Notes: generated by a model from the sequence alone, not told the origin. A stretch of 64,000 nt of DNA from Syntrophaceae bacterium UBA2280 (GCA_002347685.1 DDWS01000013.1:146472-210471), one strand, 5' to 3'. Shown: positions 5,140 through 32,585, numbered from the stretch's first letter. Numbers and translations are program-made.

Positions 5140-5148
5140 CTGATACTG

Positions 5149-16072: not shown

Positions 16073-16170
16073 CTCTTTAATGGCATTCATTGCATCATTG
16101 CCATCACGGAACATCACATAAATTGAAATAAGATCATAATGATACACATGACAAGGGCAACAAAATGCCG

Positions 16171-16186
16171 TGGCACCAATATTGCA
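16171..16186 (+). promoter_or_regulatory. Sigma-54 (-24/-12) promoter of the sugar/glycosyltransferase operon
   Basis: TGGCAC-caata-TTGCA is an exact match to the TGGCAC-N5-TTGCA consensus. It lies 57 nt upstream of the rfbF ATG. Confidence 0.7.
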
Positions 16187-16242
16187 AAATGTCGGATTGT
16201 CGGATTTTACCCATAAGAAACCACAGGGGGTATGGATTCATC

Positions 16243-17022
16243 ATGAAAGTCGTTATCTTTGCAGGCGGAGCCGGAACGCGGATCTCGGAAGAGTCTTATT
16301 TGAAACCCAAACCAATGATCGAAATTGGCGAAAAGCCCATTCTCTGGCATCTGATGAAACTTTTTGAGGCCCAGGGATTCAATGATTTCATCATTTGCGT
16401 CGGCTATAAAAGCTTCATGATAAAGGAATATTTCCTCAATTATTACGTTTACAACTCGGATGTGACCGTCAATCTTCTGACAAACAGCTTCGAGGTGCAC
16501 CGGTCCAATACGGAAAAATTCCGTGTCACGTTGGTAGACACGGGCCTTCATACGCAAACCGCGGGACGTTTGAAGCGGGCCCGACAATATGTCGGCAATG
16601 AAGAATTTCTTCTGACTTATGGTGATGGACTGGCGGATGTTAACCTCAAGGTGCTGATTGATTATCACCATGAGCACGGGAAAATCGCCACGGTCACCGC
16701 TGTTCAGCCAGCAGGCCGCTTTGGACTTCTGGGGCTTGAGGACGACGCGCGTGTGTCGAGTTTTAAAGAAAAAACACTGGGAGATGGCGGATGGATCAAC
16801 GGGGGCTTCTTCGTTCTGAAACCGGACGTCTTCGACTATCTGCCGGAAAACTCCGATCAATTGATGTGGGAGGATGCCCCGCTGGAAAAACTGTCCGCGG
16901 AAGGTCAACTAGTCGCCTATAAGCATCACGGGTTCTGGCAATGCATGGACGCCATGCGCGATAAGGAAATACTCGAACAGCTCTGGCGCTCAGGACAGGC
17001 GAAATGGAAGATGTGGGAATAA
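16243..17022 (+). CDS. rfbF: Glucose-1-phosphate cytidylyltransferase
   Basis: MKVVIFAGGAGTRISEES...KPKPMIEIGEKPILWHLM and the C-terminal WQCMDAMRDK are typical of RfbF. I place the start at the ATG at 16243. Confidence 0.9.
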   Translation: MKVVIFAGGAGTRISEESYLKPKPMIEIGEKPILWHLMKLFEAQGFNDFIICVGYKSFMIKEYFLNYYVYNSDVTVNLLTNSFEVHRSNTEKFRVTLVDTGLHTQTAGRLKRARQYVGNEEFLLTYGDGLADVNLKVLIDYHHEHGKIATVTAVQPAGRFGLLGLEDDARVSSFKEKTLGDGGWINGGFFVLKPDVFDYLPENSDQLMWEDAPLEKLSAEGQLVAYKHHGFWQCMDAMRDKEILEQLWRSGQAKWKMWE

Positions 17023-17036
17023 ATCGCGGATAACCT

Positions 17037-18128
17037 ATGTTCGACAATATTTATTCAAATAAGAATATTCTCATCACAGGACACACGGGATTCAAGGGAT
17101 CATGGCTGGCCCTGTGGCTTTCGCAACTCGGCGCACAAATCACCGGTTACTCATTACAACCACCCACAGACCCGAACCATTTTCAGTTGCATGATCTCCA
17201 TATCAACTCCGTGATTTGTGATATTCGCAACGCGGATAAACTCAAACAAGTTTTCCAAGAGCAGCAACCGGAAATCGTTTTTCATCTGGCCGCGCAGGCC
17301 ATTGTCCGGCGATCCTACCGCGAACCGGTGGAAACATTTACAAGCAATGTACTGGGCACGATTAATCTGCTGGAAGCCGCGAGGGCCTGTGACTCCGTTC
17401 GCGCCATCGTGATCGTCACCAGCGACAAATGCTATGAAAACAAGGAATGGTTTTGGGGCTATCGCGAAATCGATCCGCTGGGCGGATATGACCCCTACAG
17501 CGCCTCGAAAGGGTGCGCTGAAATCGTCACCGGTTGCTGGCGCAATTCCTATTTCAACCCGAAGGATTATGGCAAAAGCCATCAGACGCTTCTTGCCAGC
17601 GCCCGCGCCGGCAATGTGATTGGCGGCGGCGACTGGGCAGCCGATCGCCTGATTCCGGACATCATGCGCGCGACGGCACAATCTCAAAAAGTAACGATTC
17701 GCAATCCCCACGCGACCCGCCCCTGGCAGCATGTTCTTGAACCTCTGAGCGGCTATCTGCTGCTGGGTCAAAGACTTCTGGAGGGCCGCAAGGAATTTGC
17801 CGACGCGTGGAATTTCGGACCTTCCGAGGAAGAAAATCTCAGCGTCGATGAAATCGTCGGTCAGGTTAAAGCGCTCTGGCCGAAAATGGATTATCATATT
17901 GAGGGATCACCGGATCAACCCCACGAAGCGGGCCTGCTTCGGTTGGATTGCTCTAAAGCCCGCGCCCAATTACAATGGGCGCCTGCATGGACCGGCAGCA
18001 ATGCCGTTGAGAAAACCGTCTCCTGGTATAGAAATTTTTATGAAACCGGTATAATATTGAGCATGGATCATCTTCATCAATATGTTGCAGACGCGCAAAA
18101 CAAACACATCGCATGGGCGGAAAAATGA
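17037..18128 (+). CDS. rfbG: CDP-glucose 4,6-dehydratase
   Basis: 363 aa. SDR motifs are ITGHTGFKGSWL and YSASKGCAE. Confidence 0.9.
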   Translation: MFDNIYSNKNILITGHTGFKGSWLALWLSQLGAQITGYSLQPPTDPNHFQLHDLHINSVICDIRNADKLKQVFQEQQPEIVFHLAAQAIVRRSYREPVETFTSNVLGTINLLEAARACDSVRAIVIVTSDKCYENKEWFWGYREIDPLGGYDPYSASKGCAEIVTGCWRNSYFNPKDYGKSHQTLLASARAGNVIGGGDWAADRLIPDIMRATAQSQKVTIRNPHATRPWQHVLEPLSGYLLLGQRLLEGRKEFADAWNFGPSEEENLSVDEIVGQVKALWPKMDYHIEGSPDQPHEAGLLRLDCSKARAQLQWAPAWTGSNAVEKTVSWYRNFYETGIILSMDHLHQYVADAQNKHIAWAEK

Positions 18129-18661
18129 AATTTATCGAAACAAAACTTCAAGGCGCGTTCATCATTCGGCCGGATCTCATTGAAGACGAGCGAGGTTTCT
18201 TTGCCCGCACTTTCTGCCGACGTGAATTTGAAGAACATGGCTTAAATACCAATCTGGTTCAGTGCAACATTTCCTTCAACAAACAAAAAGGAACCCTGCG
18301 CGGCATGCATTATCAGGTTCCGCCGCATGCCGAGGCCAAGCTGGTTCGCTGCACGGCGGGAGCCATTTACGACGTCATCATCGATCTACGTGCCGCTTCA
18401 TCAACATTCAAGCAATGGTTTGCAGTGGAGCTGACAGCCGAAAATCATCAGTTGCTCTACGTTCCGGAAGGCTTTGCGCACGGATACCAAACGCTACGTC
18501 CGGATACGGAAATCCTTTATCAAGTATCCGAATTCTATCATCCGCAAAGTGAAGAAGGTGTCCGTTGGAATGATCCGGCTTTTGGAATAGTATGGCCGCT
18601 ACCTGCTACTGCCATGTCCGGCAAAGATGCATCCCATCCTGATTGGGGGGCAGACAAATGA
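18125..18661 (+). CDS. Sugar-nucleotide 3,5-epimerase, RmlC-like cupin (probable CDP-4-keto-6-deoxyhexose epimerase)
   Basis: MKFIETKLQGAFII..DERGFF...GTLRGMHYQ..P..EAKLVRC is an RmlC-family pattern. There is an ATGA overlap with the rfbG stop. Confidence 0.8.
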   Translation: MKFIETKLQGAFIIRPDLIEDERGFFARTFCRREFEEHGLNTNLVQCNISFNKQKGTLRGMHYQVPPHAEAKLVRCTAGAIYDVIIDLRAASSTFKQWFAVELTAENHQLLYVPEGFAHGYQTLRPDTEILYQVSEFYHPQSEEGVRWNDPAFGIVWPLPATAMSGKDASHPDWGADK

Positions 18662-19797
18662 AAGTCAGACTTTTTCAACCTTCCGTGGGACAAGAGGAGC
18701 TAAATGCCATCCAGGAAGCTTTTAATGATGCCTGGATTGGCCTTGGGCCGAAAGTAACGGAATTTGAAAATGCATGGCGCAATTTTATCGGCTGTAGACA
18801 TGCCGTGGGCATGAATTCGGCTACCGCGGCCTTACATCTGGCCTTGGCCGTCTATCGCTTCCCTAGGGGCAAGAAAGTCCTTATCCCCGCGGTAACATTT
18901 GTCGCCACCGCAACCGCCGCCTTGTATTGCGGTTTGCAACCGGTGTTTGTGGACGTTCGCGAAGACACCCTGGGCATGGATTTGGATGATCTCGAGCGTA
19001 AAATTGATCCGGATTGCGTGGCGGTAATGCCTGTGCATCTCTGCGGGCATCCCGTCGAAATGGACAGGCTGCTTGCTATCGCTCATAAAAACAGTCTCAA
19101 AGTAATTGAAGACTGTGCGCATACTGCGGGCGGTATATACAAAGGAAAAACTTTGGGTACCTGGGGAAATATCGGCTGCTTTTCATTTGAAGAAAAAAAG
19201 TGCATGACCACAGGCGACGGGGGAATGTTTTGCACGGATGACGAGGAATTGGTGGCTCCCGTTCGCGCCATGCGCTGGGTCGGTATCGATAAAGACACAT
19301 GGAAACGAAACGTCGGCTACACCTGTGAAGGCATCGAAGACCGCCACTGGTATTATGAGATTTCCTTGCTGGGATACAAGTACAACATGAATGACCTGGC
19401 AGCCTCCATTGGTCTGGTCCAGCTGCGAAAACTGCCAGAGATGAACGCGAGAAGAACCGCAATCATCGCTCGCTACCTGGATGGAATTGAGCACCTTGAA
19501 CATATCAGGCCACTTATCCCCTATGATTTATCCGGCGGAAATGTTTACCACATATTTGGAGTGCGGACTGACGCCAATAACCGCGACAATCTGATGCGCT
19601 ATTTAAAACAGCATGAAATTTCCACAGGCCTACACTACACGCCGCTGACACTCCATCCTCTTTTCCGCGCTCACAAAGAGGCAGTACCAAACGCACTATC
19701 GGTTTATCATCAAATTATGACTCTTCCGCTTCATGCGGCTTTGACCGACCAAGAAGTCGATTATGTCATCGACGCAATTTGTAGATGGAGCAAATGA
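18658..19797 (+). CDS. DegT/DnrJ/EryC1/StrS family sugar aminotransferase
   Basis: The family pattern is present (AVGMNSATAALHLAL, FSFEEKKCMTTGDGGM). There is an ATGA overlap with the upstream stop. Confidence 0.9.
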   Translation: MKVRLFQPSVGQEELNAIQEAFNDAWIGLGPKVTEFENAWRNFIGCRHAVGMNSATAALHLALAVYRFPRGKKVLIPAVTFVATATAALYCGLQPVFVDVREDTLGMDLDDLERKIDPDCVAVMPVHLCGHPVEMDRLLAIAHKNSLKVIEDCAHTAGGIYKGKTLGTWGNIGCFSFEEKKCMTTGDGGMFCTDDEELVAPVRAMRWVGIDKDTWKRNVGYTCEGIEDRHWYYEISLLGYKYNMNDLAASIGLVQLRKLPEMNARRTAIIARYLDGIEHLEHIRPLIPYDLSGGNVYHIFGVRTDANNRDNLMRYLKQHEISTGLHYTPLTLHPLFRAHKEAVPNALSVYHQIMTLPLHAALTDQEVDYVIDAICRWSK

Positions 19798-19836
19798 CAG
19801 CTGTCTTAAAAGATCCGAAAAAATGAGAAAAATATC

Positions 19837-20484
19837 ATGAAACAAAAACCGTCCATAAACCCAATTTCATCGATCCTGAAAAATCATTACGAAAAGAGTT
19901 TCGAAAAATTCGGCCCAAGTTCTGCTGGCGTTGATTGGGGACAGGACAAAACCAGAATGCTTATAAGATATAATAATATGTTGGATCTTGTGGAAAAACC
20001 GCAAGCACGCAAAAAGCAGTCTCTTCTGGATGTGGGTTGCGGTTTCGGCGGTCTGGCAGCTTATGCGCGCCAAAAAGACATCGCTTTAAATTATACCGGG
20101 ATTGACGTTGCAACAAACATGATCCGGTGGGCTAAAAAAAATATTAAGCAGTCAAAATTTATCGAAGACGATTTTCTCGCGCACGATTTTTCCGGAGCAA
20201 CTTACGATTATATCATCTGTAATGGTATACTGACTCAAAAGCTGGATTGCAGTCTGCGCGAAATGGATGTGTTTGCCAAAGCCTTGATTCATAAAATGTA
20301 TAGCTTGTGTAAAAAGGGCATCGCTTTCAATATCATGACGACCTATGTTAATTTTTTTGCTCCCAATCTTTATTACAAGCATCCGGCCGAATTACTTTCT
20401 TATTGCCTGTCCGAATTGAGCACGAAGGTAAAAATCGATCACGCGTACGGGCTTTATGAATTCACCGTATATGTGTACAGATGA
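19837..20484 (+). CDS. Class I SAM-dependent methyltransferase
   Basis: 215 aa, with motif I LLDVGCGFGGLAAYA. Confidence 0.7.
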   Translation: MKQKPSINPISSILKNHYEKSFEKFGPSSAGVDWGQDKTRMLIRYNNMLDLVEKPQARKKQSLLDVGCGFGGLAAYARQKDIALNYTGIDVATNMIRWAKKNIKQSKFIEDDFLAHDFSGATYDYIICNGILTQKLDCSLREMDVFAKALIHKMYSLCKKGIAFNIMTTYVNFFAPNLYYKHPAELLSYCLSELSTKVKIDHAYGLYEFTVYVYR

Positions 20485-20492
20485 GGAATGAC

Positions 20493-21143
20493 ATGGCAGA
20501 CATCATTATTTACGGAACCGGCCTTATTGCCGAAGTTGCGCATTTCTATTTCACACACGATACCGGACGGCACATCGCATGCTTTACAAATGCCGGCTCA
20601 TTTATTAAAGAATCCACCCTTCTCAATCTGCCTGTGGTGCCTTTTGAAAATATTGAGGCGCTTTTCCCTCCCGAGCACTACGACATGTTTATCGCAATCG
20701 GTTATACCAAAACGAATCAAATTCGTCAGCAGAGATACGCGGAGGCAAAAGCAAAGGGCTATCGGCTTGTAACCTATATAAGCTCACGGGCGGCATATTA
20801 CGCAACGCCGGTAGGCGACAATTGTCTCATCCTGGAAAATAACGTGATCCAGCCATACGTGACCATCGGCAACAATGTCACCTTATGGTCGGGCAATCAC
20901 ATTGGACATCATTCAGTCATTGAAGACCATTGTTTTATCAGCTCTCATGTCGTCGTCTCGGGATCCTGTTATATTGAAGAAAACTGTTTTCTGGGTGTCA
21001 ACAGCACATTAAGGGACAATGTAAGAATCGGAAAACTGTCCGTCATAGGTTCCGGAGCGACCGTTATGAAAAATTGCGGTGAACGGTCCCTGGTTCAGCC
21101 GGCAAAATCAAGGCATGAAATCATAGAAAAAGACATAATCTGA
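20493..21143 (+). CDS. NeuD/PglB/VioB-type sugar N-acetyltransferase (left-handed beta-helix)
   Basis: The N-terminus is IIIYGTGLIAEVA and the C-terminus carries hexapeptide repeats (IGNNVTLWSGNHIGHHSVIEDHCFISSHVVVSG). The start may be 20481 or 20493. Confidence 0.8.
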   Translation: MADIIIYGTGLIAEVAHFYFTHDTGRHIACFTNAGSFIKESTLLNLPVVPFENIEALFPPEHYDMFIAIGYTKTNQIRQQRYAEAKAKGYRLVTYISSRAAYYATPVGDNCLILENNVIQPYVTIGNNVTLWSGNHIGHHSVIEDHCFISSHVVVSGSCYIEENCFLGVNSTLRDNVRIGKLSVIGSGATVMKNCGERSLVQPAKSRHEIIEKDII

Positions 21144-21150
21144 AGGAAAG

Positions 21151-22110
21151 ATGCAAAGTCGGGATCAGCTGATGAATATGAAGTGGAAAAAAAAGGGGCA
21201 AATCTTTGTTCCGCCAGGTAACGGATTTTTCAAGACTCACGTAACCCGTTCAATACCTTATCGTATCGATCCTTCAACATTACGCATTTATTTTTCATCG
21301 CGCAGCAGCGAAGACATCCCATACCCTACCTTCATAGACGTTGACCCCGCATGTCCAGATAGGATATTACATATCAACGCAACTCCAATGATGGACTTGG
21401 GCAGAACCGGAACTTTTGACGACTCGGGTATCACGCCAACATGTATTCTGAAGCATAAAAATCAAGTAATGATGTATTATGTCGGATGGAAAAGGCGTCG
21501 CTACGGTGTTACCATTGAAGCATCCATCGGGCTTGCAATTTTAACCGACCACGGCACCAAGTTAAAAAGATGTTTTGAAGGCCCTATTATAGGTCAGGAT
21601 AAAAATCATCCCATCATGACGGCGGCACCTTTCGTTTTGTTTGACAATCGCAGATACAGAATGTGGTATTGTTCCGCTACAGAATGGAGGCAATGCAGCG
21701 GATCACCCGAACCCATTTATACCGTATGCTACGCTGAATCGGAAAACGGAATAGATTGGAAACCGCTAAGAAAACCTATTATACAAAACAGATTTGATGG
21801 CGAAGTTGTTTCTGCGCCATGGGTAATCAAGGCAGGCAACATTTATCACATGTGGTATTCAACGCGAGGTTCCGCGACAAACGAAGATAAGAAGTTCGTC
21901 ATTGGTTACGCAAAATCCCCTGATGGCGTCAAGTGGCGGCGCCTTGACAGCCAAGCGGGAATTGAGCGGTCGGAAGACGGATGGGATTCCGAAATGATTT
22001 GTTATCCTTCATTCTTTACCCATAAGGATATTACCTATATGTTTTACTCCGGCAACAATGTCGGGAAAGGCGGGCTCGGCTACGCCGAGACGAAAAATTT
22101 TCTATTGTGA
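21151..22110 (+). CDS. Uncharacterised beta-propeller-like protein (GH32/43/130-like fold suspected) of polysaccharide clusters
   Basis: 319 aa. Repeated W/Y-rich blade-like segments are present (MMYYVGW, YRMWYCS, YHMWYST, YMFYSG). The family assignment is tentative. Confidence 0.4.
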   Translation: MQSRDQLMNMKWKKKGQIFVPPGNGFFKTHVTRSIPYRIDPSTLRIYFSSRSSEDIPYPTFIDVDPACPDRILHINATPMMDLGRTGTFDDSGITPTCILKHKNQVMMYYVGWKRRRYGVTIEASIGLAILTDHGTKLKRCFEGPIIGQDKNHPIMTAAPFVLFDNRRYRMWYCSATEWRQCSGSPEPIYTVCYAESENGIDWKPLRKPIIQNRFDGEVVSAPWVIKAGNIYHMWYSTRGSATNEDKKFVIGYAKSPDGVKWRRLDSQAGIERSEDGWDSEMICYPSFFTHKDITYMFYSGNNVGKGGLGYAETKNFLL

Positions 22111-22121
22111 GGAAGTAACCG

Positions 22122-22847
22122 ATGTCCGTCACCATCGTTATATTGCAACCGATGTTTATTCCCTGGTTGGGTTTATTTGAGCAAATCCGGTTATCCGATA
22201 TTTACGTGCATTACGACGATGTGCAATTGCCACAGGGCCGGAGTTTTACAACGCGCGTGCAGATTAAAACATCCGCCGGTATCACATGGCTGACTGCGCC
22301 GGTCGATCGAACGCATTCGGGTGCCATGATCAACGAAACTTGCCTGGTTCAGGATAACAATTGGCGTATCAAACATCTTAAAAGCTTAAAGCAGTGGTAC
22401 GCACGCGCGCCTTTTGTTGACACGATGATGGAAATAGCAAATCAGATATACGCTTTCGATTCAAACAATCTTGCTTTATTTAATCTTCACGCCATTGAAT
22501 TAGTCACTGCATGGCTTGGCTTAAAGACTCGTTTTTCGAGCTCATCGGAGTTGGGAATAGCAGGATCAAGCACCAGGCGCCTGGTGGATATTTGTCAGTA
22601 TTACAAAGCGGATACATATGTGACCGGATTGGGTGCGCTTCATTATCTCGATTATGAACAGTTTGAGAGTTACGGCATATCGGTCAGATACATGGACTAT
22701 GAAAAAAGGACCTATCCCCAGTTACATGGAACCTTCACGCCTTTTGTCTCCATTCTGGATACCATAGCCAATTGCGGCAGGAAGACCGAAGAATTAATCC
22801 GTTCCGGGGCAATTTACTGGAAAGACTTCCTGTTGCGCGGGCAATAG
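22122..22847 (+). CDS. WbqC-family protein
   Basis: 241 aa. The N-terminus ILQPMFIPWLGLFEQIRLSDIYVHYDDVQ is characteristic of WbqC-like proteins. Confidence 0.75.
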   Translation: MSVTIVILQPMFIPWLGLFEQIRLSDIYVHYDDVQLPQGRSFTTRVQIKTSAGITWLTAPVDRTHSGAMINETCLVQDNNWRIKHLKSLKQWYARAPFVDTMMEIANQIYAFDSNNLALFNLHAIELVTAWLGLKTRFSSSSELGIAGSSTRRLVDICQYYKADTYVTGLGALHYLDYEQFESYGISVRYMDYEKRTYPQLHGTFTPFVSILDTIANCGRKTEELIRSGAIYWKDFLLRGQ

Positions 22848-22908
22848 ACAATTTTAGGGAGTGCCAGATAAAGAATCTCTATTTCCATCATAGCGCTCAG
22901 GGGGAACA

Positions 22909-24150
22909 ATGAATCAGGAAAACAAGCAGCAATTAACGCTGCTGAACACAATCAGCGATGCCGTTGAATACATTAAAATCAAACCCGAAGCCGAACAACA
23001 CCTGTATCAACGCCTTAAAGAAGCTTTTCTGGCTATTGGCTTACCCACCCGAAATCGCATGATTGAACTCCTGGACACGCTTCCGACGAACAGGTCGCAG
23101 CTGGATGAATTTGCAAAGCTCTTTGATAAGTGGCTGGACTTAAACATCATTGCCTTATCCAATCGCATCAGGACATCGGATTCCTATAAAAAAGGGCTTT
23201 ATGGCGCCGATAGAAAATTTAATGAATTAATCAGCCTGATTAACGGAAGTCATGCACAGACGCTTATCACCCACGCGATGGACTGTCTGCAAAAAATCAG
23301 GGACGAAAACCCGCCTCTCTATGAATTTCTCACCGTCGGATATCGCGGCTGGTATTTCGAAAACAACTGGCTAGATGGAATCGGCGGTAAAAATAATTCT
23401 CTCATAAACAACAGAATAACGACTTTAAAGAACAACATATCCAAATTCGAATGGTTCTACGACCACTTGGAAGATAACCTGTCAAAGCGATCTCTCAACG
23501 CCCTTATAAACAATTGGTTGACCTTTTCGATGAATGAGGCTCTCGATGTTTCGCTGTATGCATCGCACAATGTCGTGGCCAACACGGACATTTTTCCTCT
23601 TTATGAAAATGAGGTCTTTGTTGATTGCGGCGCTTACGTCGGAGACACCGTGGCCGATTTCGTCAACGAGTTCAACAGAGGCTATCGAAATATCTACACC
23701 TACGAGATTTCAGCGCCAACCGTCGACATTATGAAAAAGCATCTCCAAAACCTCCGGAATGTCATTTACAATGTGAAAGGCGTAGCGGATCAGAAAGGGG
23801 AATTAAGTCTTGCAGGCGTTGATGGACCTTTTCTCGGCAACCGGCTGGTAGAAGGCAAAGGAATTAAAAAGGTCCCTATCGTTAAGCTTGACGATGATAT
23901 TCAGGAACCGATTACGTTTCTCAAAATTGACGTCGAAGGATTGGATAAACAGGCTATCCTCGGCGCAAAAGAACAGATCGCCCAGCATCATCCCAAAATG
24001 CATATCGATACTTATCATAAACTGGCCGACGTGGTTGATGTGCCACTATTGGTTCACAGCATTGATCCAACCTACAGGTTTTATCTGAGGCTGACGAACT
24101 CCACCGAAAATAAAATGATGTTCGCAATTTCTTGTATTTATCCAATATGA
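22909..24150 (+). CDS. FkbM-family methyltransferase with an N-terminal extension of unknown function
   Basis: The C-terminal half carries FVDCGAYVGDT ... FLKIDVEGLD (FkbM motifs). The N-terminal roughly 200 aa are unassigned. Confidence 0.7.
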   Translation: MNQENKQQLTLLNTISDAVEYIKIKPEAEQHLYQRLKEAFLAIGLPTRNRMIELLDTLPTNRSQLDEFAKLFDKWLDLNIIALSNRIRTSDSYKKGLYGADRKFNELISLINGSHAQTLITHAMDCLQKIRDENPPLYEFLTVGYRGWYFENNWLDGIGGKNNSLINNRITTLKNNISKFEWFYDHLEDNLSKRSLNALINNWLTFSMNEALDVSLYASHNVVANTDIFPLYENEVFVDCGAYVGDTVADFVNEFNRGYRNIYTYEISAPTVDIMKKHLQNLRNVIYNVKGVADQKGELSLAGVDGPFLGNRLVEGKGIKKVPIVKLDDDIQEPITFLKIDVEGLDKQAILGAKEQIAQHHPKMHIDTYHKLADVVDVPLLVHSIDPTYRFYLRLTNSTENKMMFAISCIYPI

Positions 24151-24162
24151 GGGGGTTTTTCT

Positions 24163-27100
24163 ATGCGGTTTTCTATTTGTTTGGTCGAACCCGATGGGTA
24201 TCGGTTCTCACACTTTCTTTATGATACATGCAAATACCTTTGCTATACGATTGAAGCAAACGGCTTTGATTGTTGCATGGTCAAGAATAAATTCTTCCAG
24301 GATCGAATCAATCTTATCTTAGGCGCACACAATCTCAAAGATCCCAACGTCGTCAACATAATCCGGCGGGCGGGAAAATACATCATCATTCAATCCGAAG
24401 TTCTCACAGAAAACGGGATAGCAGGCTGGAACAACCAAGCATCTTTTACCGACGTTTATCTGCCACTAATGCTGCATGCATACGCTGTATGGGATGGCAT
24501 GGAATCCAATCAGACATACATGCAGAGGGCCGGAATCAGCGCGGATATAATTCCTCATTTCGGCTACCTTTCTGCATTGAAGGAGGTGATACCCAAAAAA
24601 AGCAAAGATATAGACTTTTTATATTATGGTTCCCTGACGCCACACAGAAAAAAGATGATAGACGAACTTAAAAAACGCGGGGGCAATGTTGTCTGTATCT
24701 TTGATGAATCTGCAATTTTTCGAAATGATTATATTGCGAGAGCGCGCATTAACTTGGCACCAAGACAGACACCAGAAAACGACCACATGACATCAAGAAT
24801 ATTATATCTGCTGAATAATCAATCAATTGTAGTTGTTGAACGTTGTCGCGACCAAGCATGGGTTGAACATTGTTTTTTATCTGCAGACACCGATAAATGG
24901 GCCGAATTGTGTATGCAGACCTTGCAGCGCTCCGATCTGGATTCACTCGCCGACCAATGCTTTGAGAATTATAAAAAACTCGATATGACAGGGCTGTTCC
25001 GGCCGCTGCTGAAAAAGCTTTGTGATGAACAAGAAATCAGCAAACCAAATATATCAATGACCTCCCAAGAGAAAAAAAGCATTATAGAAAATGATGCCCA
25101 TTCAGATGATCCTGCACCACCGTTCTTAAAAGAAATAAACATACCCGGCCTGACTTCCATCATCATCCTCACGCACAATCGGCTCGAACAAGCCAAAAAA
25201 TGCGTAAAAAGCATTCGCAGGCACACGCCAGAAGCGCATGAGATTATTTTTGTCGATAACGGATCGACCGACGGCACCGTTAAATGGCTGCAAAGTCAGA
25301 TTCGGGAAAATAAGAACTATCAATTGATTGAGAATAGAGAAAACGTTGGCGTGGCAAAGGGCCGCAATCAGGGCATGAATCTATCACAAGGGGAATTTCT
25401 ACTGCTTCTGGATAATGATGTCATCGTCAGTGAAGGCTGGCTATCCGGCATGCAGGAATGCCTGAAGCACGCGCCGGATGCCGGCATTGTCGGACCGATG
25501 ACCAACAGCAAATCTGGTCTTCAGCAGATAGCGGATGAATCTTATCGATCGGTCGATTATCTCGATAAGTACGTGGCAAAGTTTAAAGAGCAATACCGTC
25601 ATCGCCGGATTTCCAGCCGAAACATCACGGGATTCTGCCTGTTGTTCAAGCGCGCCCTGGTGGAGAAGATCGGCCTGCTCGATGAACGCTTTGACACCGG
25701 TCGTTTTGAAGATGAGGATTTCTGCTGGCGCTCGGCGCTGGAGGATTATCGGAACTACATCGCGGGGGATGTTTTTGTCCACCATAACGGAAGTAAAACA
25801 TTGCCGGGTGATCGGAAAATCTTAGAGACAAAGTGGACGCTCAGCATGGCCAGCCCCGAGGGAAAGAAGCTGGCGGTGCTGAGGGCAACAGAGTTGGCCA
25901 ATACCTATTATGTAAAAGGGTATATGGATCAGGCCGTGGAAACACTGGTCAATTGTATAAAATATACGCCGGACGAGCCGCAAATTTATTATGAGCTGAC
26001 CCGTTTTTTCATTGAATCTAAAAAATTTCCCGAAGCAAGGGACGTTGTCGCCTCCATGCCGGAAACGGCGAAAAACCATTTGAGAGGGCTGGAATGCGCA
26101 AGTTATGCCAAAGAGGGCTTAGGGCTGGATGATGAAGCGGCGGCCTTTGCCGATCAGATGTTGTCTCAACACGAAAACAATTCCGCAGCACTGAATCTGA
26201 AAGGCGTTTTGGCATTCAAAGAAGGTAAAAAGGAAAAAGCGCAGGATTTCTTCCAAAAAGCGATCAGCGCCGATCCGGGTTACGCAGAAGCCTATACCAA
26301 CCTGGGTGTTTTGTACTGGGGAATGGAAAATACGGATGCAGCTTTTTCCCATCTGAAAAAAGGGTTTATGCTGTCACCTGCGATTCCTGATGCCAGTTCA
26401 CTTTATTATTCGGTCGTCTCGTCTTTAGGCCGTTTTTCTGAAGCCGAATCGGATTTCAAAGAAGCCTGTCGTCTAAATCCCAACCACAAAAATCTTGCTT
26501 TTCTCCTGATTGATATTCTCATTCAACAGGGCAAGTTTGATGCAGCAATCATCAAGATCGAAGATGCGCTTGCCTTGTTTGGACTCGACGATGGCACTCT
26601 GAAAGCGGCTCTGGCTGTTCGCGAAAAGATCGGCCCGATGGAAATCGAAAAACCGGGCCAAAAAGGATCCTTGTCCATTTGCATGATTGTAAAAAATGAG
26701 GAAAAGCATCTGGTCAGATGCTTAAAAAGCGTCCGGGATGTGGTTGATGAAATGATCATTGTTGATACGGGCTCGACGGATAAAACGGTTAATATCGCAA
26801 AAATATTTGGCGCAAAAATTTACGAATTCCCCTGGACGGGCGATTTTGCCGCAGCCCGTAATGAGTCGCTAAAATATGCGACCGGTGATTGGACGCTAAT
26901 CCTCGACGCCGACGAAGTCATCGCCGAACGTGATTTTGATGAATTGAAAACATCAATCCACAAGCGCTCACCATCAAAAGCCGCCTATTCGATTGCCACA
27001 AGGAATTATACCAACGATATCGGACTGCTCGGGTTTGCACCCAACGATGGAAAGCATTCGGAAGAAGCAGGTGCCGGATGGGTGCCGAGCGCAAAGGTCC

Positions 27101-27927
27101 GTCTGGCACCACGAGGAAAAGATATATTTTTTATCAATCCGGTCCATGAGCTACTGGAGCCATCATTAAAATCAACTAAAATCCCCATCTATCCCAGCAA
27201 GATTATCGTTCATCATTATGGAAAGTTAGACATTCATAAAGACGCTCAAAAGGGCGAAGATTACTATCTGTTAGGAAAAATCAAGTACGAAAGCGATCCG
27301 ACAAACTTGAAAGCTATTTTTGAACTGGCCAAGCAGTCCCATTTGCTCAATAAGTATGACGAGGCCACAGAGCTGTGGCTCAAGCTCCTGGCACTTATAG
27401 AAGCCGACCCTCAATCATCAGGTTTTCAGGAAATTGTCCGGAGTACTCACGGGGATCCCTTGCCGGAAATTTATATTCAGCTTGCCTCGGCCTACTTGCT
27501 GCAGGATCGTTTTGATGAGGCTTTGCAGACAGCAAGCAAAACGCTGGAGGCTAAAGTTAAGCTCAAAGAATATATCAATATTTACGCGTTGTGCGAAATC
27601 ATAGCCGGTTCGTTGGACAAAGCATCTTATGAACTCAAAGAAACCCTTAAAACAGCGCCCGACTACGCGCCCGCACATCTATTGATGGCCGTCATTTCCT
27701 GTTTGAAAGGGGAAAAAGAACAAACGCAGGAACTATTGGGACTATTGCGGCAAAAACAAATCCAGATAACGGGCCACTTAAACAAGCTAGCCAAGCAACT
27801 TTATACTCGCGCGAGGAAGGATGAGGCGTTACTGATTCTCAACGCAACGATTGAAAACAATATAAGCAATGCTGAAACAATCGCGCTGCTTGAGGAATAC
27901 CAGAAAGGGCAACGGAATACTGGTTGA
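24163..27927 (+). CDS. 1254-aa multidomain glycosyltransferase: N-terminal GT-B/CgeB-like domain, GT2 domain, TPR block, second GT2 domain, second TPR block
   Basis: GT2 #1 is TSIIILTHNRLEQAKKCVKSI...FVDNGSTDGT...LLLLDNDV. GT2 #2 is LSICMIVKNEEKHLVRCLKSV...IIVDTGSTDKT...LILDADE. TPR-like repeats lie between and after the two GT2 domains. Confidence 0.75.
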   Translation: MRFSICLVEPDGYRFSHFLYDTCKYLCYTIEANGFDCCMVKNKFFQDRINLILGAHNLKDPNVVNIIRRAGKYIIIQSEVLTENGIAGWNNQASFTDVYLPLMLHAYAVWDGMESNQTYMQRAGISADIIPHFGYLSALKEVIPKKSKDIDFLYYGSLTPHRKKMIDELKKRGGNVVCIFDESAIFRNDYIARARINLAPRQTPENDHMTSRILYLLNNQSIVVVERCRDQAWVEHCFLSADTDKWAELCMQTLQRSDLDSLADQCFENYKKLDMTGLFRPLLKKLCDEQEISKPNISMTSQEKKSIIENDAHSDDPAPPFLKEINIPGLTSIIILTHNRLEQAKKCVKSIRRHTPEAHEIIFVDNGSTDGTVKWLQSQIRENKNYQLIENRENVGVAKGRNQGMNLSQGEFLLLLDNDVIVSEGWLSGMQECLKHAPDAGIVGPMTNSKSGLQQIADESYRSVDYLDKYVAKFKEQYRHRRISSRNITGFCLLFKRALVEKIGLLDERFDTGRFEDEDFCWRSALEDYRNYIAGDVFVHHNGSKTLPGDRKILETKWTLSMASPEGKKLAVLRATELANTYYVKGYMDQAVETLVNCIKYTPDEPQIYYELTRFFIESKKFPEARDVVASMPETAKNHLRGLECASYAKEGLGLDDEAAAFADQMLSQHENNSAALNLKGVLAFKEGKKEKAQDFFQKAISADPGYAEAYTNLGVLYWGMENTDAAFSHLKKGFMLSPAIPDASSLYYSVVSSLGRFSEAESDFKEACRLNPNHKNLAFLLIDILIQQGKFDAAIIKIEDALALFGLDDGTLKAALAVREKIGPMEIEKPGQKGSLSICMIVKNEEKHLVRCLKSVRDVVDEMIIVDTGSTDKTVNIAKIFGAKIYEFPWTGDFAAARNESLKYATGDWTLILDADEVIAERDFDELKTSIHKRSPSKAAYSIATRNYTNDIGLLGFAPNDGKHSEEAGAGWVPSAKVRLAPRGKDIFFINPVHELLEPSLKSTKIPIYPSKIIVHHYGKLDIHKDAQKGEDYYLLGKIKYESDPTNLKAIFELAKQSHLLNKYDEATELWLKLLALIEADPQSSGFQEIVRSTHGDPLPEIYIQLASAYLLQDRFDEALQTASKTLEAKVKLKEYINIYALCEIIAGSLDKASYELKETLKTAPDYAPAHLLMAVISCLKGEKEQTQELLGLLRQKQIQITGHLNKLAKQLYTRARKDEALLILNATIENNISNAETIALLEEYQKGQRNTG

Positions 27928-28015
27928 TCGTGGATGGTGAAGGGACAAAGACGGTTATTCCGAACACATGTGAGGAATCACAGGGCAACGACTTTTATTA
28001 GAAACAAGATGGAAT

Positions 28016-28399
28016 TTAATCCGCCGGACTGCCACGGAGCCCGGCGGCCAGATTCAGGTTGATATCCATAATGATCTTGAGCTTTTCCGGCTGAGGGTCG
28101 GCCATGATCTGAATGATGCGGTTGTCGATAAATACACTGAGCGTCAGGATGCTCTGGCGGATCTCGATCGGAAGCGGATTATCGTCTCTGACCAGTTCCG
28201 ACTGGAGGATGCTCCAGACGACCTGGTTGGTTCTAAGCGCTTCGGCCAAGAGGTCATCACGATCAGGCGTGTCCCAGTTTTTCACGCAATCGGACAAAAG
28301 CAGCGCGCAACGTGTCAGCGCGGCGGCCTCGATGTCTCTCCCCGACATATTATCGGTTTTCTGTGCTGTTCGATAGGCTTCGAGTTCTCTCGGATACAC
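28016..28399 (-). CDS. flaF: Flagellar biosynthesis regulator FlaF, paralog 1
   Basis: 127 aa, with a GTG start. The FlaF pattern is present (AYRTAQ...REIEAAALTRCALLL...NQVVWSILQSEL...NPLPIEIRQSILTLSVF). Confidence 0.75.
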   Translation of the reverse strand: MYPRELEAYRTAQKTDNMSGRDIEAAALTRCALLLSDCVKNWDTPDRDDLLAEALRTNQVVWSILQSELVRDDNPLPIEIRQSILTLSVFIDNRIIQIMADPQPEKLKIIMDINLNLAAGLRGSPAD

Positions 28400-28434
28400 C
28401 GCCCACCCCCTGACCCTTTTTTATGACTATTACT

Positions 28435-28461
28435 TTATCGGTATTTACAAGAGAAACATTA
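28435..28461 (-). promoter_or_regulatory. Sigma-28 (FliA)-type promoter for flaF paralog 1
   Basis: The minus strand reads TAATGTTT-N11-ACCGATAA, against the consensus TAAAGTTT-N11-GCCGATAA. It lies about 36 nt upstream of the GTG start. Confidence 0.55.
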
Positions 28462-28602
28462 AGCCCATGCAACGTAATAGATACTTTCAAGGCTGATCAT
28501 AATCGTCGATAAAACCTGACCAATCTTGATGATACTGGCATTTATCGGATGAATAATGTAGGATAGCAGACACAAAGGCAAACGATATTGCAGAGGAAAA
28601 CT

Positions 28603-28980
28603 GTGAAAAACGATATCTGTCATGAACTGCGGAACAAAAAACCCCTTATGCCGGTTCTGCCGGATGAGCAAAAAGTGAACGAGCAGGATTCTCTTTCGTT
28701 ATCTTTGCTACGACCATCTTTGTTCTGGGATGTGAATCCGGATAGGCTGGACGCAGACCGGCATGCAGCCTTCATTATTGTCCGTGTTATGGAACGCGGC
28801 ACACGGGAAGATGTCAACACCGTCTGGCATTATTACGGTGAGGAGACTATAAAAATACATCTTTTAGCCGCGAGATCATTGCATAAAAAGACCATTTCCT
28901 ATTTTGCAAATAAGTTCAGTGTCAGCCGCGCACAATTTAAAAGCTTTCACCACGGAGAGCAGGTCCAGCCATGGCCTTAA
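28603..28980 (+). CDS. Small partner protein of the AbiEii-like nucleotidyltransferase (putative antitoxin-like; LFWD motif family)
   Basis: It contains PSLFWDVNPDRLD...HAAFIIVRVMERG, a pattern I recognise from proteins encoded upstream of AbiEii-like genes. The start is ambiguous (28588 TTG, 28603 GTG after AGAGGA, or 28648 ATG). The 3' end overlaps the next gene by 10 nt. Confidence 0.5.
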   Translation: MKNDICHELRNKKPLMPVLPDEQKVNEQDSLSLSLLRPSLFWDVNPDRLDADRHAAFIIVRVMERGTREDVNTVWHYYGEETIKIHLLAARSLHKKTISYFANKFSVSRAQFKSFHHGEQVQPWP

Positions 28981-29588: not shown

Positions 29589-29594
29589 AATTTT

Positions 29595-29631
29595 TAGACC
29601 TACAGCCTAACAGCCCACAGCCTAATAGCCT
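29595..29631. repeat. Heptanucleotide tandem-repeat tract
   Basis: Sequence is tagaccta cagccta acagccc acagccta atagcct. It fills the gap between the AbiEii stop (29588) and the flaF2 stop (29638). Confidence 0.7.
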
Positions 29632-29637
29632 TTAATA

Positions 29638-30021
29638 TCATTCCGCCGCGCTGCCTCTGAGCCCCGCGGCGAGATTCAGGTTAATGTCGATGACGATCTT
29701 GAGTTTTTCCGGTTCGGGATTCGCCATAACATCAATAATTCGTTTATCAACAAAAAGGCTGAGTGTCAGGATGTTGTTGCGAATCTCGACGGGCAGGGGA
29801 TTGTCATCTTTCACCAGCTCCGATTGTAGAATACTCCAGACCACCTGGTTGGTTCTGAGCGCCTCGGCTAAATTTTCATCACGGTCGGGGGCATTCCAGT
29901 GTTTACGGCAATCCTCCAGCAAGAGTGCGCAACGGGTCAGCGCAGCGGCTTCAATATCGCGGCCGGACATATTATTGGAATTCTGTGCGGTTCTATAGGC
30001 TTCGAGTTGCAGTGCGTACAC
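29638..30021 (-). CDS. flaF: Flagellar biosynthesis regulator FlaF, paralog 2
   Basis: It aligns along its full length with paralog 1. I place the start at the GTG at 30021, which lies 9 nt after GGGAGG and matches the paralog 1 N-terminus (YxxxLEAYRTAQ). The ORF track extends it to 30048. Confidence 0.75.
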   Translation of the reverse strand: MYALQLEAYRTAQNSNNMSGRDIEAAALTRCALLLEDCRKHWNAPDRDENLAEALRTNQVVWSILQSELVKDDNPLPVEIRNNILTLSLFVDKRIIDVMANPEPEKLKIVIDINLNLAAGLRGSAAE

Positions 30022-30400
30022 GGTTGATGACCTCCCGTTCGTATTCAATGAGTTTTTTCGTTTGTTTCAGCGCCTGATAATGCCGGTCGTTGAGAATATC
30101 GTTGCTGATCTCCTGCAACATTGGCTTGGTGGAAGGCGCCGCCTGGGCCACATCCTTGACCAGTTCCCAGTAAATCTTGTGATGCTCCGGAAGATTCTTG
30201 CCATCGATATACATGAGCTGAATGGCAAAATAAATTTTCTTGCACGGAGTGTCCGCCGACTGAAGCGTCAGAATATCTTTTTCCCGCAGGATCGGCACAT
30301 CGTTTTCAAGCACAAAGGTACTTTTGGCATCGCCGTTGGCGATGACCGCGCCGCCGAGAATGAATTTTTCGTGCGGCTTGAGCGTTATTTTTAGGGCCAT
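29993..30400 (-). CDS. flbT: Flagellar biosynthesis repressor FlbT
   Basis: 135 aa. MALKITLKPHEKFILGGAVIANGD...VLENDVPILREKDI matches the FlbT N-terminal pattern (LKLSLKPGEK..NGAV..N.....L....VLREKDI). Confidence 0.75.
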   Translation of the reverse strand: MALKITLKPHEKFILGGAVIANGDAKSTFVLENDVPILREKDILTLQSADTPCKKIYFAIQLMYIDGKNLPEHHKIYWELVKDVAQAAPSTKPMLQEISNDILNDRHYQALKQTKKLIEYEREVINRVRTATRSL

Positions 30401-30407: not shown

Positions 30408-30890
30408 CTATGCCTCCAGTTTCAGGATCGAGCCGGGTTGAATATTATCTTTCGACACGGCCAGGCTTCGGGACAAAGTATCCCGAAGAGTCTTCAGGTT
30501 GTCAACAGCATTGGCGATTTGCTGATCGTTCGCGTCATCTTTCAATTTCTCGCCGGAAACGGCTTGTTTGATTTCCGGGCTAAGCGATGAGCGCTCGACC
30601 TCCACCTGAATGTTCCTGACCTCGCTGATGAGATCCATTCGCTGGTAGGTTGCTATGGGGAAAAAAGGCGGATCCTTAACTTCATTGAGGTTCCACTGTT
30701 TCTGCAGAGCATTCACGCGTTCCGCGATCCCCAGCAACCGGGCACTGCTGGTTTCCACCCCCGCTCTCGGCGCGGGTGCGCTTCGGTCGGAAGACAAAAC
30801 CTGCCTGTTGTCGTCGCTGGAGCTGTTCGAACCGCCAGGGCGAATCGCATTCTGCAGTCCCTGATACGGGTTAATTTGATTAATCATCAT
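30408..30890 (-). CDS. Hypothetical protein of the flagellin locus
   Basis: 160 aa. The N-terminus is Ser/Pro-rich and looks disordered. I recognise no family. It sits between fliC and flbT on the same strand. Confidence 0.5.
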   Translation of the reverse strand: MMINQINPYQGLQNAIRPGGSNSSSDDNRQVLSSDRSAPAPRAGVETSSARLLGIAERVNALQKQWNLNEVKDPPFFPIATYQRMDLISEVRNIQVEVERSSLSPEIKQAVSGEKLKDDANDQQIANAVDNLKTLRDTLSRSLAVSKDNIQPGSILKLEA

Positions 30891-30959: not shown

Positions 30960-32276
30960 CTACTGGAACAATCTCAGAACCGACTGGGCTGCCTGTGCCG
31001 ACATGCTCAGAGCGGTCGTGCTGAGAGACTGACGGGTCTGCAGCATCAGCATGTTCGCGCCTTCTTCGTTCGCGTCAGCCAGGGTCAGCTTGTCCGCGCC
31101 TTGGGTCAGCGTGTTAATCATGTTCGTCGAGAAATCCTGACGAACGGTGATGATACTCAGGTTGCCGGATAGCTTGGACGATTCAGAACGAAGCGTGATT
31201 AAAGCAGTATCCAGAGCAGCCAGATCGGTATCAATGTTGCCGCCGTCTGTCCAGGTTGCCGCATTAATGCCCAGATCGGCTGCAGCGGCGCTAAAGCCCA
31301 CCACTTCCAGATCGATCCCTTCAAATTTCACAGTCAGCGTATCTGCGCTCAGGAGATTTTTCCCCTTGTAGCCTGAGTCTTCCGCCAACGCAGTCAACTG
31401 AGTCAGCAGGGTGTTGTACTGTCCCTGCAAGGAGACGAGTTCCGGGGAGGGCACTTCAGTATATGTCACACTGACTGCGCCTACGGCAGAAACTGTCGCT
31501 GTTTCAACACCTGTGATAGCGCCTAGTTCACCTTGCAATGCTGTAAAGGCGGCCGTAGCAGAAGCGCCGGTTGCCGAATACGCAGTTGTACCAATTGAGA
31601 AGGTAGCGGTTTCTACGTGCGCGACAGGCCCTGCAGCCCCAGTCGCATCTCCAGCAGTGACAGCGGTGCCTGTAATACTGCCTGCAGCAACATCAGCTGC
31701 AGCGTTCGAAATAGTGATAACTTCACCTGTAGCGGAGGCTGTATAACCTGTCAAAGCATCTATCTTGGCAGCCAGATCTGTAGCAGATCCGTCAAAACTG
31801 GTGGCACCGCCTGCATCCGTATTGACCGCAAACGTCGTGGTGCCGATGACGATGGTTTGACCCGTGGTAGTCAGACCTCCAGTGGTCAATGTTAATGTTG
31901 CGTTCGCATAGGAGGTTACTGTAGCAACGGCAGTTCCGGTCACTTCATCAGGTGTCGTGGCGGGTGCCGCGCTCAGAGCGGACTGCGCAAGACCTTTGGC
32001 CTGTTCAATCATTGCACTGATGGCCGTGATACCTTTGTCGGCGGCGGTGATCGTCTGAACGGCCTGTCCCATGGCATCCTTCAAACCATCAATGATGGAC
32101 GCACGCGAGGTCAGTGACTGAGCCGCGAAGAATGATACGGGATTGTCAATAGCGGTGTTAACTTTTTTGCCTGTCGCCAGGCGGCTTTGGGTTCTGTCTA
32201 AAAGATCAACGGTGTTCTGAAGTGCTAAAAGGTTGGATCTCATACCGGAAGTTAATGATACGTCGTTAATAGCCAT
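30960..32276 (-). CDS. fliC: Flagellin (Caulobacter/alphaproteobacterial-type termini, Thr/Ala/Gly-rich central domain)
   Basis: 438 aa. The N-terminus reads LTSGMRSNLLALQNT...RLATGKKVNTAIDNPVSFF. The C-terminus reads ANEEGANMLMLQTRQSLSTTALSMSAQAAQSVLRLFQ. Confidence 0.9.
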   Translation of the reverse strand: MAINDVSLTSGMRSNLLALQNTVDLLDRTQSRLATGKKVNTAIDNPVSFFAAQSLTSRASIIDGLKDAMGQAVQTITAADKGITAISAMIEQAKGLAQSALSAAPATTPDEVTGTAVATVTSYANATLTLTTGGLTTTGQTIVIGTTTFAVNTDAGGATSFDGSATDLAAKIDALTGYTASATGEVITISNAAADVAAGSITGTAVTAGDATGAAGPVAHVETATFSIGTTAYSATGASATAAFTALQGELGAITGVETATVSAVGAVSVTYTEVPSPELVSLQGQYNTLLTQLTALAEDSGYKGKNLLSADTLTVKFEGIDLEVVGFSAAAADLGINAATWTDGGNIDTDLAALDTALITLRSESSKLSGNLSIITVRQDFSTNMINTLTQGADKLTLADANEEGANMLMLQTRQSLSTTALSMSAQAAQSVLRLFQ

Positions 32277-32454: not shown

Positions 32455-32585
32455 GGGGTTTTTGGAAAAATCTAAAAATAATCAAAAAAATCGAGGTGAT
32501 GGGCAAGAGGCTACAGCCCTTCGAATCTTTCATCTTCCCCATCCACTATTCACCAGCCACCATCCACCATCCACCGCCCCTCCCC

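Follow-up and report, generated by a model that had tools for sequence, protein, structure and literature searches.

A flagellin-linked gene of Syntrophaceae bacterium UBA2280 likely encodes a soluble O-glycosyltransferase that combines initiation and extension of a glycan in one polypeptide

Introduction

Listeria monocytogenes GmaR, a flagellin O-GlcNAc transferase that is also an antirepressor of MogR, consists of a glycosyltransferase (GT) domain followed by tetratricopeptide repeats (TPRs), which its authors proposed to recognise flagellin (PMC9638930). In FlmG the TPR domain lies at the N-terminus, ahead of a single GT-B domain (bioRxiv 10.1101/2022.03.25.485807), and proteins that pair a family 2 GT (GT2) domain with TPRs in the flagellar glycosylation islands of Clostridium have been predicted to be flagellin GTs (PMC13317340). 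Here we describe an open reading frame (ORF) of 1254 amino acids (aa) whose product carries two GT2 domains, two TPR arrays and a further N-terminal domain; it lies on a 64,000-nucleotide stretch of Syntrophaceae bacterium UBA2280 (GCA_002347685.1 DDWS01000013.1:146472-210471), which we call the window and from whose first base all positions are counted. We consider it likely that its product is a soluble O-glycosyltransferase which modifies flagellin in the cytoplasm and, as a single polypeptide, both starts and extends the glycan, a reading built on the observed domain identities, conservation of catalytic motifs, operon position and conserved synteny with flagellin genes.

To our knowledge, each of the characterised flagellin glycosyltransferases (Maf, FlmG, GmaR, FgtA) has one catalytic domain, and both the assembly of multi-sugar flagellin glycans and the encoding of acceptor specificity are poorly understood. 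In the literature searched we found no characterised protein with three catalytic domains and a double TPR array, and no dual-GT2 flagellin enzyme. An earlier reading of the DNA sequence by itself (hereafter the sequence-only reading) could not match the fusion to a characterised enzyme either, but it had overlooked the relatives GmaR and SunS. The complete fusion is no rarity: dozens of homologues of ~1250 aa exist.

Domain architecture of the encoded protein

The ORF, to which we refer as the GT gene, divides as follows.

24163..27927, + strand: whole ORF, soluble multi-domain glycosyltransferase, 1254 aa (Pfam, homologues)
24163..25038, + strand: N-terminal domain (N-domain), aa 1-292, an orphan family by sequence, probably a compact GT-B-like transferase (AlphaFold2 model, family search)
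25039..25143, + strand: linker, aa 293-327, poorly conserved and predicted to be disordered (model confidence, alignment)
25144..25842, + strand: GT2a, aa 328-560, classical polysaccharide-type GT2 (GT-A) domain (PF00535, PF13641)
25855..26652, + strand: TPR array 1 (TPR1), aa ~565-830 (several Pfam TPR families)
26665..27222, + strand: GT2b, aa 835-1020, GmaR/SunS-type protein-glycosylating GT2 domain (GmaR and SunS matches)
27232..27912, + strand: TPR or helical-repeat array 2 (TPR2), aa ~1024-1250, 13 helices (Pfam TPR, AlphaFold2 model)

Pfam PF00535 matches the ORF in two stretches (178 bits overall against a cut-off of 23.3, E 1.7e-52) and Pfam TPR families match it at aa ~567-830 and ~1040-1200, which bears out the two GT2 domains and two TPR blocks that the sequence-only reading had drawn in this 1254-aa ORF; the same annotation with hidden Markov models gave no direct PF13524 match in aa 1-327. 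The characteristic motifs fall at positions 365 (DNGSTD), 416 (LDNDV), 843 (VKNEE), 868 (DTGSTD) and 914 (LDADE), and TPR1 resembles the TPR domain of OGT over aa 577-777 (E 2e-24 in a PDB sequence search). Between the N-domain and GT2a, the AlphaFold2 (AF2) model has a predicted local distance difference test (pLDDT) score below 50 over aa 296-316, and an alignment of 53 homologues shows no consensus in the linker. The domain order N-domain, GT2a, TPR1, GT2b, TPR2 is real.

The ORF opens with an ATG codon. Homologues are conserved from position 1 onwards, with F3, E9, P10 and H17-D21 nearly invariant in the same alignment of 53 sequences, and we therefore take this long start to be correct, although one Joint Genome Institute (JGI) gene call (P0001, 1216 aa) begins 38 residues further in. 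No hydrophobic segment of the ORF reaches transmembrane level (maximum Kyte-Doolittle value over 19 residues, 1.4), from which it follows that the product is soluble; a membrane-bound polysaccharide synthase was judged unlikely on the same ground.

With respect to known families, every match in an NCBIfam scan of the ORF fell far under its cut-off. MAF_flag10 was not among the best 25 of 32 Pfam matches of the ORF, nor was it found when the C-terminal piece was scanned by itself, and by this family evidence the product is not a Maf-type flagellin glycosyltransferase. The two GT2 domains are only 31% identical to one another, and that similarity is limited to their first 96 residues; we class them as two distinct GT2 subfamilies rather than as the duplicated domain of the sequence-only reading, and a recent internal duplication was rejected.

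A GmaR/SunS-type module at the C-terminus

Scanned alone, the C-terminal piece matches PF00535 at aa ~838-936 (79 bits, 5.1e-22). In sequence searches GT2b found the glycosyltransferase domain of GmaR (PDB 22ao; E 1e-25 to 2e-26) and then SunS (E 1e-13 to 8e-15), with the next GT2 protein at 1.5e-5, and in the printed alignment with GmaR most aligned residues are identical over the first ~90 residues. TIGR04195, the SunS family, matches at 3e-20, which lies under its equivalog cut-off. Residues D868, D873, D915-A-D917-E918, H995-E996 and H1017-H1018 are conserved in 117-118 of 118 homologues (D868 in all 118; D915 and D917 in 117).

The AF2 model of aa 826-1254 is of high confidence (mean pLDDT 89.9) and consists of a GT-A domain followed by 13 helices. 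Its best PDB matches in Foldseek are SunS and ThuS, aligned at full length over ~435 columns (E 2e-15, template modelling (TM) score 0.53-0.68), while the next GT2 structures score seven orders of magnitude worse. Judged by homology and model together, GT2b and TPR2 (aa 835-1250) are a GmaR/SunS-type protein glycosyltransferase module, and the closest characterised relative of the ORF product is GmaR rather than FlmG.

Conserved linkage to flagellin genes

Downstream, the GT gene faces a set of flagellin-related genes.

28016..28399, - strand: FlaF paralogue 1, convergent with the GT gene (PF07309 2.6e-27; NF009435 above cut-off)
28588-29588, + strand: DUF6922 and AbiEii toxin-antitoxin pair, between the two FlaF paralogues
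29638..30048, - strand: FlaF paralogue 2 (PF07309 1.1e-29)
29993..30400, - strand: FlbT flagellin synthesis regulator (PF07378 1.9e-44)
30408..30890, - strand: conserved 160-aa ORF between FlbT and flagellin (homologues in syntenic position)
30960..32276, - strand: flagellin, 437 aa, presumed acceptor (PF00669; NCBIfam flagellin subfamily 8e-59)

The central ~200 residues of this flagellin are rich in Ala, Gly, Thr and Ser (28.5% S+T, 31.5% A+G) and have no domain match; the NCBIfam models that match the protein were built on flagellins of 750-890 aa and do so at the termini only.

The arrangement is conserved well beyond this organism. Among about 16 close relatives of the locus whose flanks are long enough, 14 have FlaF, FlbT and flagellin genes on the opposite strand after the GT gene (L003-L007, L009, L011, L014, L015, L017, L021-L023 and L026, from Thermodesulfobacteriota, Nitrospirota and Syntrophorhabdus), and a flagellin ORF occurs in 34 of 79 related loci of ~18 kb. 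By a rough estimate, which assumes a few flagellin genes per several-megabase genome, chance would place flagellin in a few per cent of such loci at most. The GT gene is thus a flagellin glycosylation island gene, linked to flagellin and sugar genes across taxa, and the proposal of the sequence-only reading that TPR and catalytic domains are here combined in a flagellin glycosyltransferase has become very likely, given this synteny and the nucleotide-sugar operon described below.

More distant genomes show the parts of the protein apart from one another. In Eremiobacterota and some Firmicutes, GT2b with its TPRs and GT2a are encoded by separate adjacent genes beside flagellins, and distant relatives of GT2a and GT2b are adjacent genes in several Paenibacillus genomes. 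The former arrangement indicates that the fusion joins enzymes that are already partnered elsewhere.

Could flagellin be a mere neighbour, and the true acceptor a glycocin-like peptide, a pilin, an S-layer protein or the like? In structure the protein is matched best by SunS and ThuS, which are peptide S-glycosyltransferases, and TPRs are generic protein-binding modules. We nevertheless think this very unlikely: the scanned neighbours include neither a gene for a small Cys-rich peptide nor a bacteriocin ABC exporter, nor any pilin or S-layer family, the partner conserved across loci is flagellin together with FlaF and FlbT, and by sequence GT2b matches GmaR, a flagellin enzyme, better than SunS (2e-26 versus 8e-15).

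The same neighbourhood bears on whether the protein also has a regulatory role like that of GmaR, in which its C-terminal repeats would bind FlaF, FlbT or some other regulator and so tie glycosylation to control over flagellin synthesis. The GT gene adjoins FlaF and FlbT across loci, and GmaR is itself bifunctional, being both a GT and an antirepressor (PMC9638930). However, a search with aa 822-1254 returned only a 204-residue entry for the GmaR GT domain and no longer GmaR chain, showing no similarity to the TPR/antirepressor part, so that the MogR-binding antirepressor domain of GmaR is not detectable in the ORF product. FlaF and FlbT act post-transcriptionally and have no relationship to MogR, and their adjacency is already accounted for by a shared flagellin target. 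An added regulatory role is, in our view, quite unlikely.

The upstream sugar operon and GT2a

Ten consecutive genes share one strand; the GT gene closes the series, 12 bases from the gene before it, and the other nine form a sugar operon.

16165..24150, + strand: nine-gene sugar operon (Pfam, NCBIfam)

These genes encode a CDP-glucose synthase (glucose-1-phosphate cytidylyltransferase), a CDP-glucose 4,6-dehydratase, an RmlC-type epimerase, a DegT aminotransferase, an S-adenosylmethionine (SAM) methyltransferase, a VioB/NeuD-type N-acetyltransferase, a protein resembling glycoside hydrolase (GH) families 43 and 130, WbqC and an FkbM methyltransferase. The cytidylyltransferase, dehydratase, epimerase and N-acetyltransferase each score above an NCBIfam cut-off, with TIGR02623, TIGR02622, TIGR01221 and TIGR03570 the models concerned. 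On these family assignments, the operon makes a CDP-activated 4-amino-4,6-dideoxyhexose that is N-acetylated and probably also methylated; scans of the neighbourhood found no nonulosonic acid synthase family.

Two members of the operon deserve separate mention. The 319-aa ORF at 21151-22110 (+) has weak matches to GH43 and GH130 and a sub-threshold match to beta-1,2-mannobiose phosphorylase (1.6e-10); such a protein is unusual in a nucleotide-sugar pathway, and this one might work on the glycan as a transferase of the glycoside phosphorylase type. The Pfam and TIGRFAM match to the FkbM-family methyltransferase (413 aa; 22909-24150, +) spans residues ~236-367 only, and the N-terminal ~235 aa carry no annotation.

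Within the GT gene product, GT2a is matched by PF00535 at aa 332-504 and by PF13641 at aa 328-542, and its closest solved relatives in sequence are GalT1 (5hea, 6e-9), from streptococcal adhesin glycosylation, and chondroitin synthase. Its best NCBIfam matches are exopolysaccharide (EPS)-type and rhamnosyl-type transferases, all sub-cut-off. The acidic residues D365, D419 and D519 are kept in 115, 101 and 117 of the 118 homologues, respectively, and the DxD region reads [D/N]417-N418-D419. Because catalytic residues are kept across these homologues in GT2a as well as GT2b, both GT2 domains are probably catalytically active. The transfer of more than one sugar, which the sequence-only reading had proposed, is probable in the light of these conserved acidic motifs and of a third, GT-like domain in the same protein.

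The character of GT2a and of the operon raises the question of whether the protein instead serves the synthesis of a cell-surface polysaccharide (O-antigen, capsule or EPS), with the TPRs used for complex assembly only. GT2a resembles polysaccharide GT2 proteins (EpsD at 1.3e-25, TuaG, WcaA/E, chondroitin synthase), the upstream genes are like those of O-antigen sugar pathways (RfbF/RfbG, WbqC), and JGI labels some relatives ‘O-antigen biosynthesis protein’. Set against this are the sub-cut-off scores of all NCBIfam matches of the ORF and the Pfam scans of neighbouring genes, which contain no flippase (Wzx), polymerase (Wzy), chain-length or initiating phosphoglycosyltransferase family. The ORF product also lacks a membrane segment, GT2b is specifically of GmaR/SunS type, and the synteny with flagellin is conserved across phyla. 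We regard a polysaccharide role as very improbable indeed.

The N-terminal domain

The sequence-only reading had called the N-terminal region CgeB/GT-B-like, a label that we find plausible but not established. A Pfam scan of aa 1-327 returned zero families even at E<10, and an N-domain profile searched against PDB sequences gave chance-level matches only. The domain nevertheless has the marks of a conserved family: ~30 residues, mostly polar, are invariant in the 53-homologue alignment (among them H56, E79, E141, D149, R162, D181, R187, N188, D189, R193, E226 and E235), and the family comprises 2109 cluster representatives at E<1e-3, or 976 at E<1e-10. Most members are stand-alone proteins of 280-300 aa; the rest include fusions with TPRs, methyltransferases, GT41 or GT2 domains.

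Indirect support for the GT-B label comes from two sources. First, the AF2 model of the N-domain (mean pLDDT 73.7; above 90 for aa 30-135, the first Rossmann-like half) has as its top PDB matches the compact GT-B proteins Gtf3/GtfC (E 1e-4, probability 1.0), though with a TM score of only 0.40 and ~10% identity; across the top Foldseek matches, which also include AGT, PimA and WaaG, probability reaches 1.0 while TM scores are only 0.27-0.47. Second, remote relatives of the N-domain lead towards PF13524. In four of them (P0218, P0281, P0206 and P0208) the corresponding C-terminal half matches PF13524 below threshold, at E 1e-3 to 1.6e-4, and a fifth, P0197, matches the N-domain profile over residues 92-285 (independent E-value 4e-19) and PF13524 above the Pfam threshold over the overlapping residues 175-276 (54.7 bits, 1.4e-14). 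The transitive connection to PF13524, which rests on the one strong link through P0197, is suggestive.

Two loci place members of this family in other settings. At L082, a stand-alone 307-aa N-domain gene (10001-10924) lies inside a syntenic S1-RfbF-dehydratase-epimerase-DegT-acetyltransferase operon, directly after the acetyltransferase gene; as it sits inside a sugar-biosynthesis operon, the N-domain might act on a sugar precursor. At L083, a protein that joins an N-domain to TPRs (10001-11419) is encoded beside radical SAM/B12, GT4 and methyltransferase genes and MotAB/PilZ.

It is conceivable that a single catalytic domain matters and transfers one sugar, as in GmaR, while the other GT-like domains are scaffolds or act on a nucleotide sugar instead of the growing glycan. 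The L082 gene, the lack of a recognisable nucleotide-sugar motif from Pfam in the N-domain, and the variation between D and N at the first ‘DxD’ position of GT2a would all accord with this. Yet D365, D419 and D519 of GT2a are each kept by 101 or more of the 118 homologues, about 30 polar residues are invariant in the N-domain, and strong purifying selection on all three domains argues for a function of each, so that we think a single relevant catalytic domain unlikely.

A constant core with exchangeable N-terminal modules

Dozens of full-length homologues of ~1250 aa share 45-86% identity with the ORF product, named examples coming from Syntrophus, Smithella and Desulfobacterales, and this family is widespread in anaerobic Thermodesulfobacteriota and Nitrospirota. 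The GT2a-TPR-GT2b-TPR core (~920 aa) also occurs alone, or behind other N-terminal modules: a SAM methyltransferase (~1400 aa in total), PF13524 with an extra GT2 domain (~1870 aa), GT4 with a methyltransferase (~1900 aa), a radical SAM/SPASM domain (~1650 aa) or extra GT2 domains (~1650 aa). A constant core with variable N-terminal modules fits a pattern of tailoring modules.

Giant relatives of ~2600-3400 aa (L007 850-11088, L005 5870-13696 and L009 4700-12841) likewise end in a GT2-TPR-GT2-TPR core and adjoin flagellin genes.

Proposed mechanism

From the evidence above we infer as follows what the acceptor is, in which order the domains act, how many sugars are added and which donor each domain uses. 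By homology with GmaR and SunS, the GT2b-TPR2 module would bind flagellin through its helical repeats, and before export GT2b would place the first sugar on Ser/Thr residues of the central region of flagellin, which is rich in both. GT2a, a classical inverting-type GT2, would then add residues, and the N-terminal GT-B-like domain may do likewise, with TPR1 contributing to the grip on the substrate. The CDP-activated, N-acetylated, probably methylated 4-amino-4,6-dideoxyhexose made by the nine upstream genes would be among the donors.

Several points weigh against this scheme. Synteny is association, not substrate identity, and L016, a related locus with ~10 kb of downstream flank, has no flagellin. 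GT2b is cast as the initiating domain through its likeness to GmaR and SunS only, some source annotations name relatives as O-antigen biosynthesis proteins, and the first ‘DxD’ position of GT2a is N in about half of the 118 homologues. As for the N-domain, its assignment to GT-B is weak (TM score 0.40, no direct Pfam match): the second half of the AF2 model has pLDDT values of only 45-75, and alignment with hhalign of the N-domain profile to the PF13524 regions of the sibling proteins P0050, P0053, P0055 and P0062 gave a probability of 0.4%, which is not significant; a local hmmsearch of the N-domain against the same four siblings was negative.

We also entertain a bolder version, though it is doubtful, in which the core is a programmable single-polypeptide assembly line for O-glycans, where two TPR clamps hold flagellin while GT2b, GT2a and an exchangeable N-module act in fixed order. 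If this were so, the glycan structure could be read from the domain order, much as in the logic of non-ribosomal peptide and polyketide synthases (NRPS/PKS), and the N-module would represent a GT-B-like family of over 2000 members that had so far escaped recognition, replaced by other modules in relatives that reach ~3400 aa.

What is most original in the system, in our view, is that its N-terminal tailoring domains are exchanged as modules and that the N-domain belongs to a large orphan family. The family to which the GT gene belongs would join domains for initiation, extension and tailoring to two arrays that bind the substrate. Should the proposed mechanism be true, the family would offer a compact system in which to dissect, and perhaps engineer, sequential protein O-glycosylation, and would assign a function to an orphan family of ~285-aa proteins. 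In practical terms its importance is moderate, given that the organism is uncultured or environmental and that enzymes of this class are known in outline already.

Other features of the window

The two FlaF paralogues are 78% identical in aa sequence and share a 300-nucleotide direct repeat at 75%, while every related locus examined has a single FlaF gene; the two copies around the toxin-antitoxin pair look like a local duplication tied to insertion of the toxin-antitoxin module. The 160-aa ORF between FlbT and flagellin (30408-30890) has no Pfam or NCBIfam match, yet homologues occupy the equivalent position in L005, L006 and L014, and it is possible that it encodes a flagellin-associated factor such as a chaperone or regulator. 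Divergent from the flagellin gene, a 453-aa TPR protein (32496-33857, +) has sub-threshold matches to MamA, to SycD/LcrH-type chaperones of type III secretion systems and to the flagellar collar protein FlcA, and is also found at L001 and L002.

G+C content falls to 0.44-0.47 over 20001-30000, which covers the distal sugar genes, the GT gene and the FlaF/toxin-antitoxin region, versus 0.49-0.58 in the flanks; this dip fits a horizontally exchanged, variable glycosylation island. A tRNA scan found none, and there is therefore no tRNA-linked island boundary. In a scan of 15.6-33 kb for promoters and terminators, counts were at the level of shuffled sequence and uninformative.

The rest of the window encodes an electron-transfer flavoprotein (ETF), an iron-sulphur (FeS) oxidoreductase, an acyl-CoA synthetase-type AMP-binding enzyme, enoyl-CoA hydratase, transketolase and CarB, and metabolic enzymes such as these indicate that the window is chromosomal. 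At 158-7119 (-) lie genes for enoyl-CoA hydratase, a membrane FeS oxidoreductase with CCG domains, EtfA/EtfB and the acyl-CoA synthetase-type (AMP-binding) enzyme, a set typical of syntrophic fatty-acid oxidisers that fits the Syntrophales-like naming of the GT homologues.

Comparison with known systems

Multi-domain GT2 and TPR proteins encoded beside flagellin in Paenibacillus alvei (PAV_2c01630/01640) are reportedly needed for the O-glycosylation of that flagellin with a trisaccharide, in work by Janesch et al. in Glycobiology in 2016; these flagellin GTs may be similar to the ORF product, and we treat them as a lead only. Like the GT gene, the genes for the Clostridium GT2 and TPR proteins (PMC13317340) and for C. 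difficile FgtA/CD0240 (bioRxiv 10.64898/2026.02.12.704994) lie beside flagellin and sugar-biosynthesis genes, a setting in which GT2 domains with TPRs are read in that literature as the hallmark of a flagellin GT; by their descriptions, these proteins are set apart by being shorter and having a single GT domain. The streptococcal enzymes Gtf3/GtfC and GalT1 (PDB 3rhz, 3qkw, 4w6q, 9hu9, 5hea), which serve serine-rich repeat (SRR) adhesins, extend an O-glycan on a cytoplasmic protein before its export, as we propose here, but they are separate proteins acting on SRR adhesins, and the likeness of the N-domain to them is at the level of fold only.

The sequence-only reading had turned to FlmG of Caulobacter for its model, and as a functional analogy the comparison stands: in the FlmG of Caulobacter and Brevundimonas, the TPR domain binds flagellin and the GT domain transfers the sugar in the cytoplasm (PMC7591256, bioRxiv 10.1101/2022.03.25.485807), and both FlmG and the ORF product occur in organisms with regulation of flagellin by FlaF and FlbT. 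As a statement of relationship it fails. FlmG places its TPRs ahead of a GT-B domain and uses CMP-pseudaminic or CMP-legionaminic acid, whereas the ORF product has GT-A (GT2) domains, each preceding its TPR array, and a C-terminal half of GmaR/SunS type; because fold, domain order and donor all differ, it lies outside the FlmG family.

SunS and ThuS (PDB 7msn, 7msp, 7msk) share with the C-terminal module a GT-A domain and a helical repeat domain that act on a peptide or protein acceptor. They differ in being stand-alone enzymes of ~420 aa that S-glycosylate Cys in bacteriocin precursors, and no gene for such a peptide is present among the scanned neighbours here.

Closest of all is GmaR, which resembles the ORF product in having a GT2 (GT-A) domain followed by TPRs, in being soluble and in its flagellin context; GT2b aligns with GmaR residues 9-130, and the two share the motifs IVKNEE, VDTGSTD and DADE. 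The differences lie in what surrounds this common unit. GmaR has one catalytic domain and a C-terminal antirepressor, whereas the ORF product has three domains of catalytic type and two TPR arrays; the helical part that follows GT2b is ~230 aa long, versus ~460 aa in GmaR (PMC9638930); and where GmaR uses UDP-GlcNAc, the donor for the ORF product is likely to be a CDP-activated aminodideoxyhexose.

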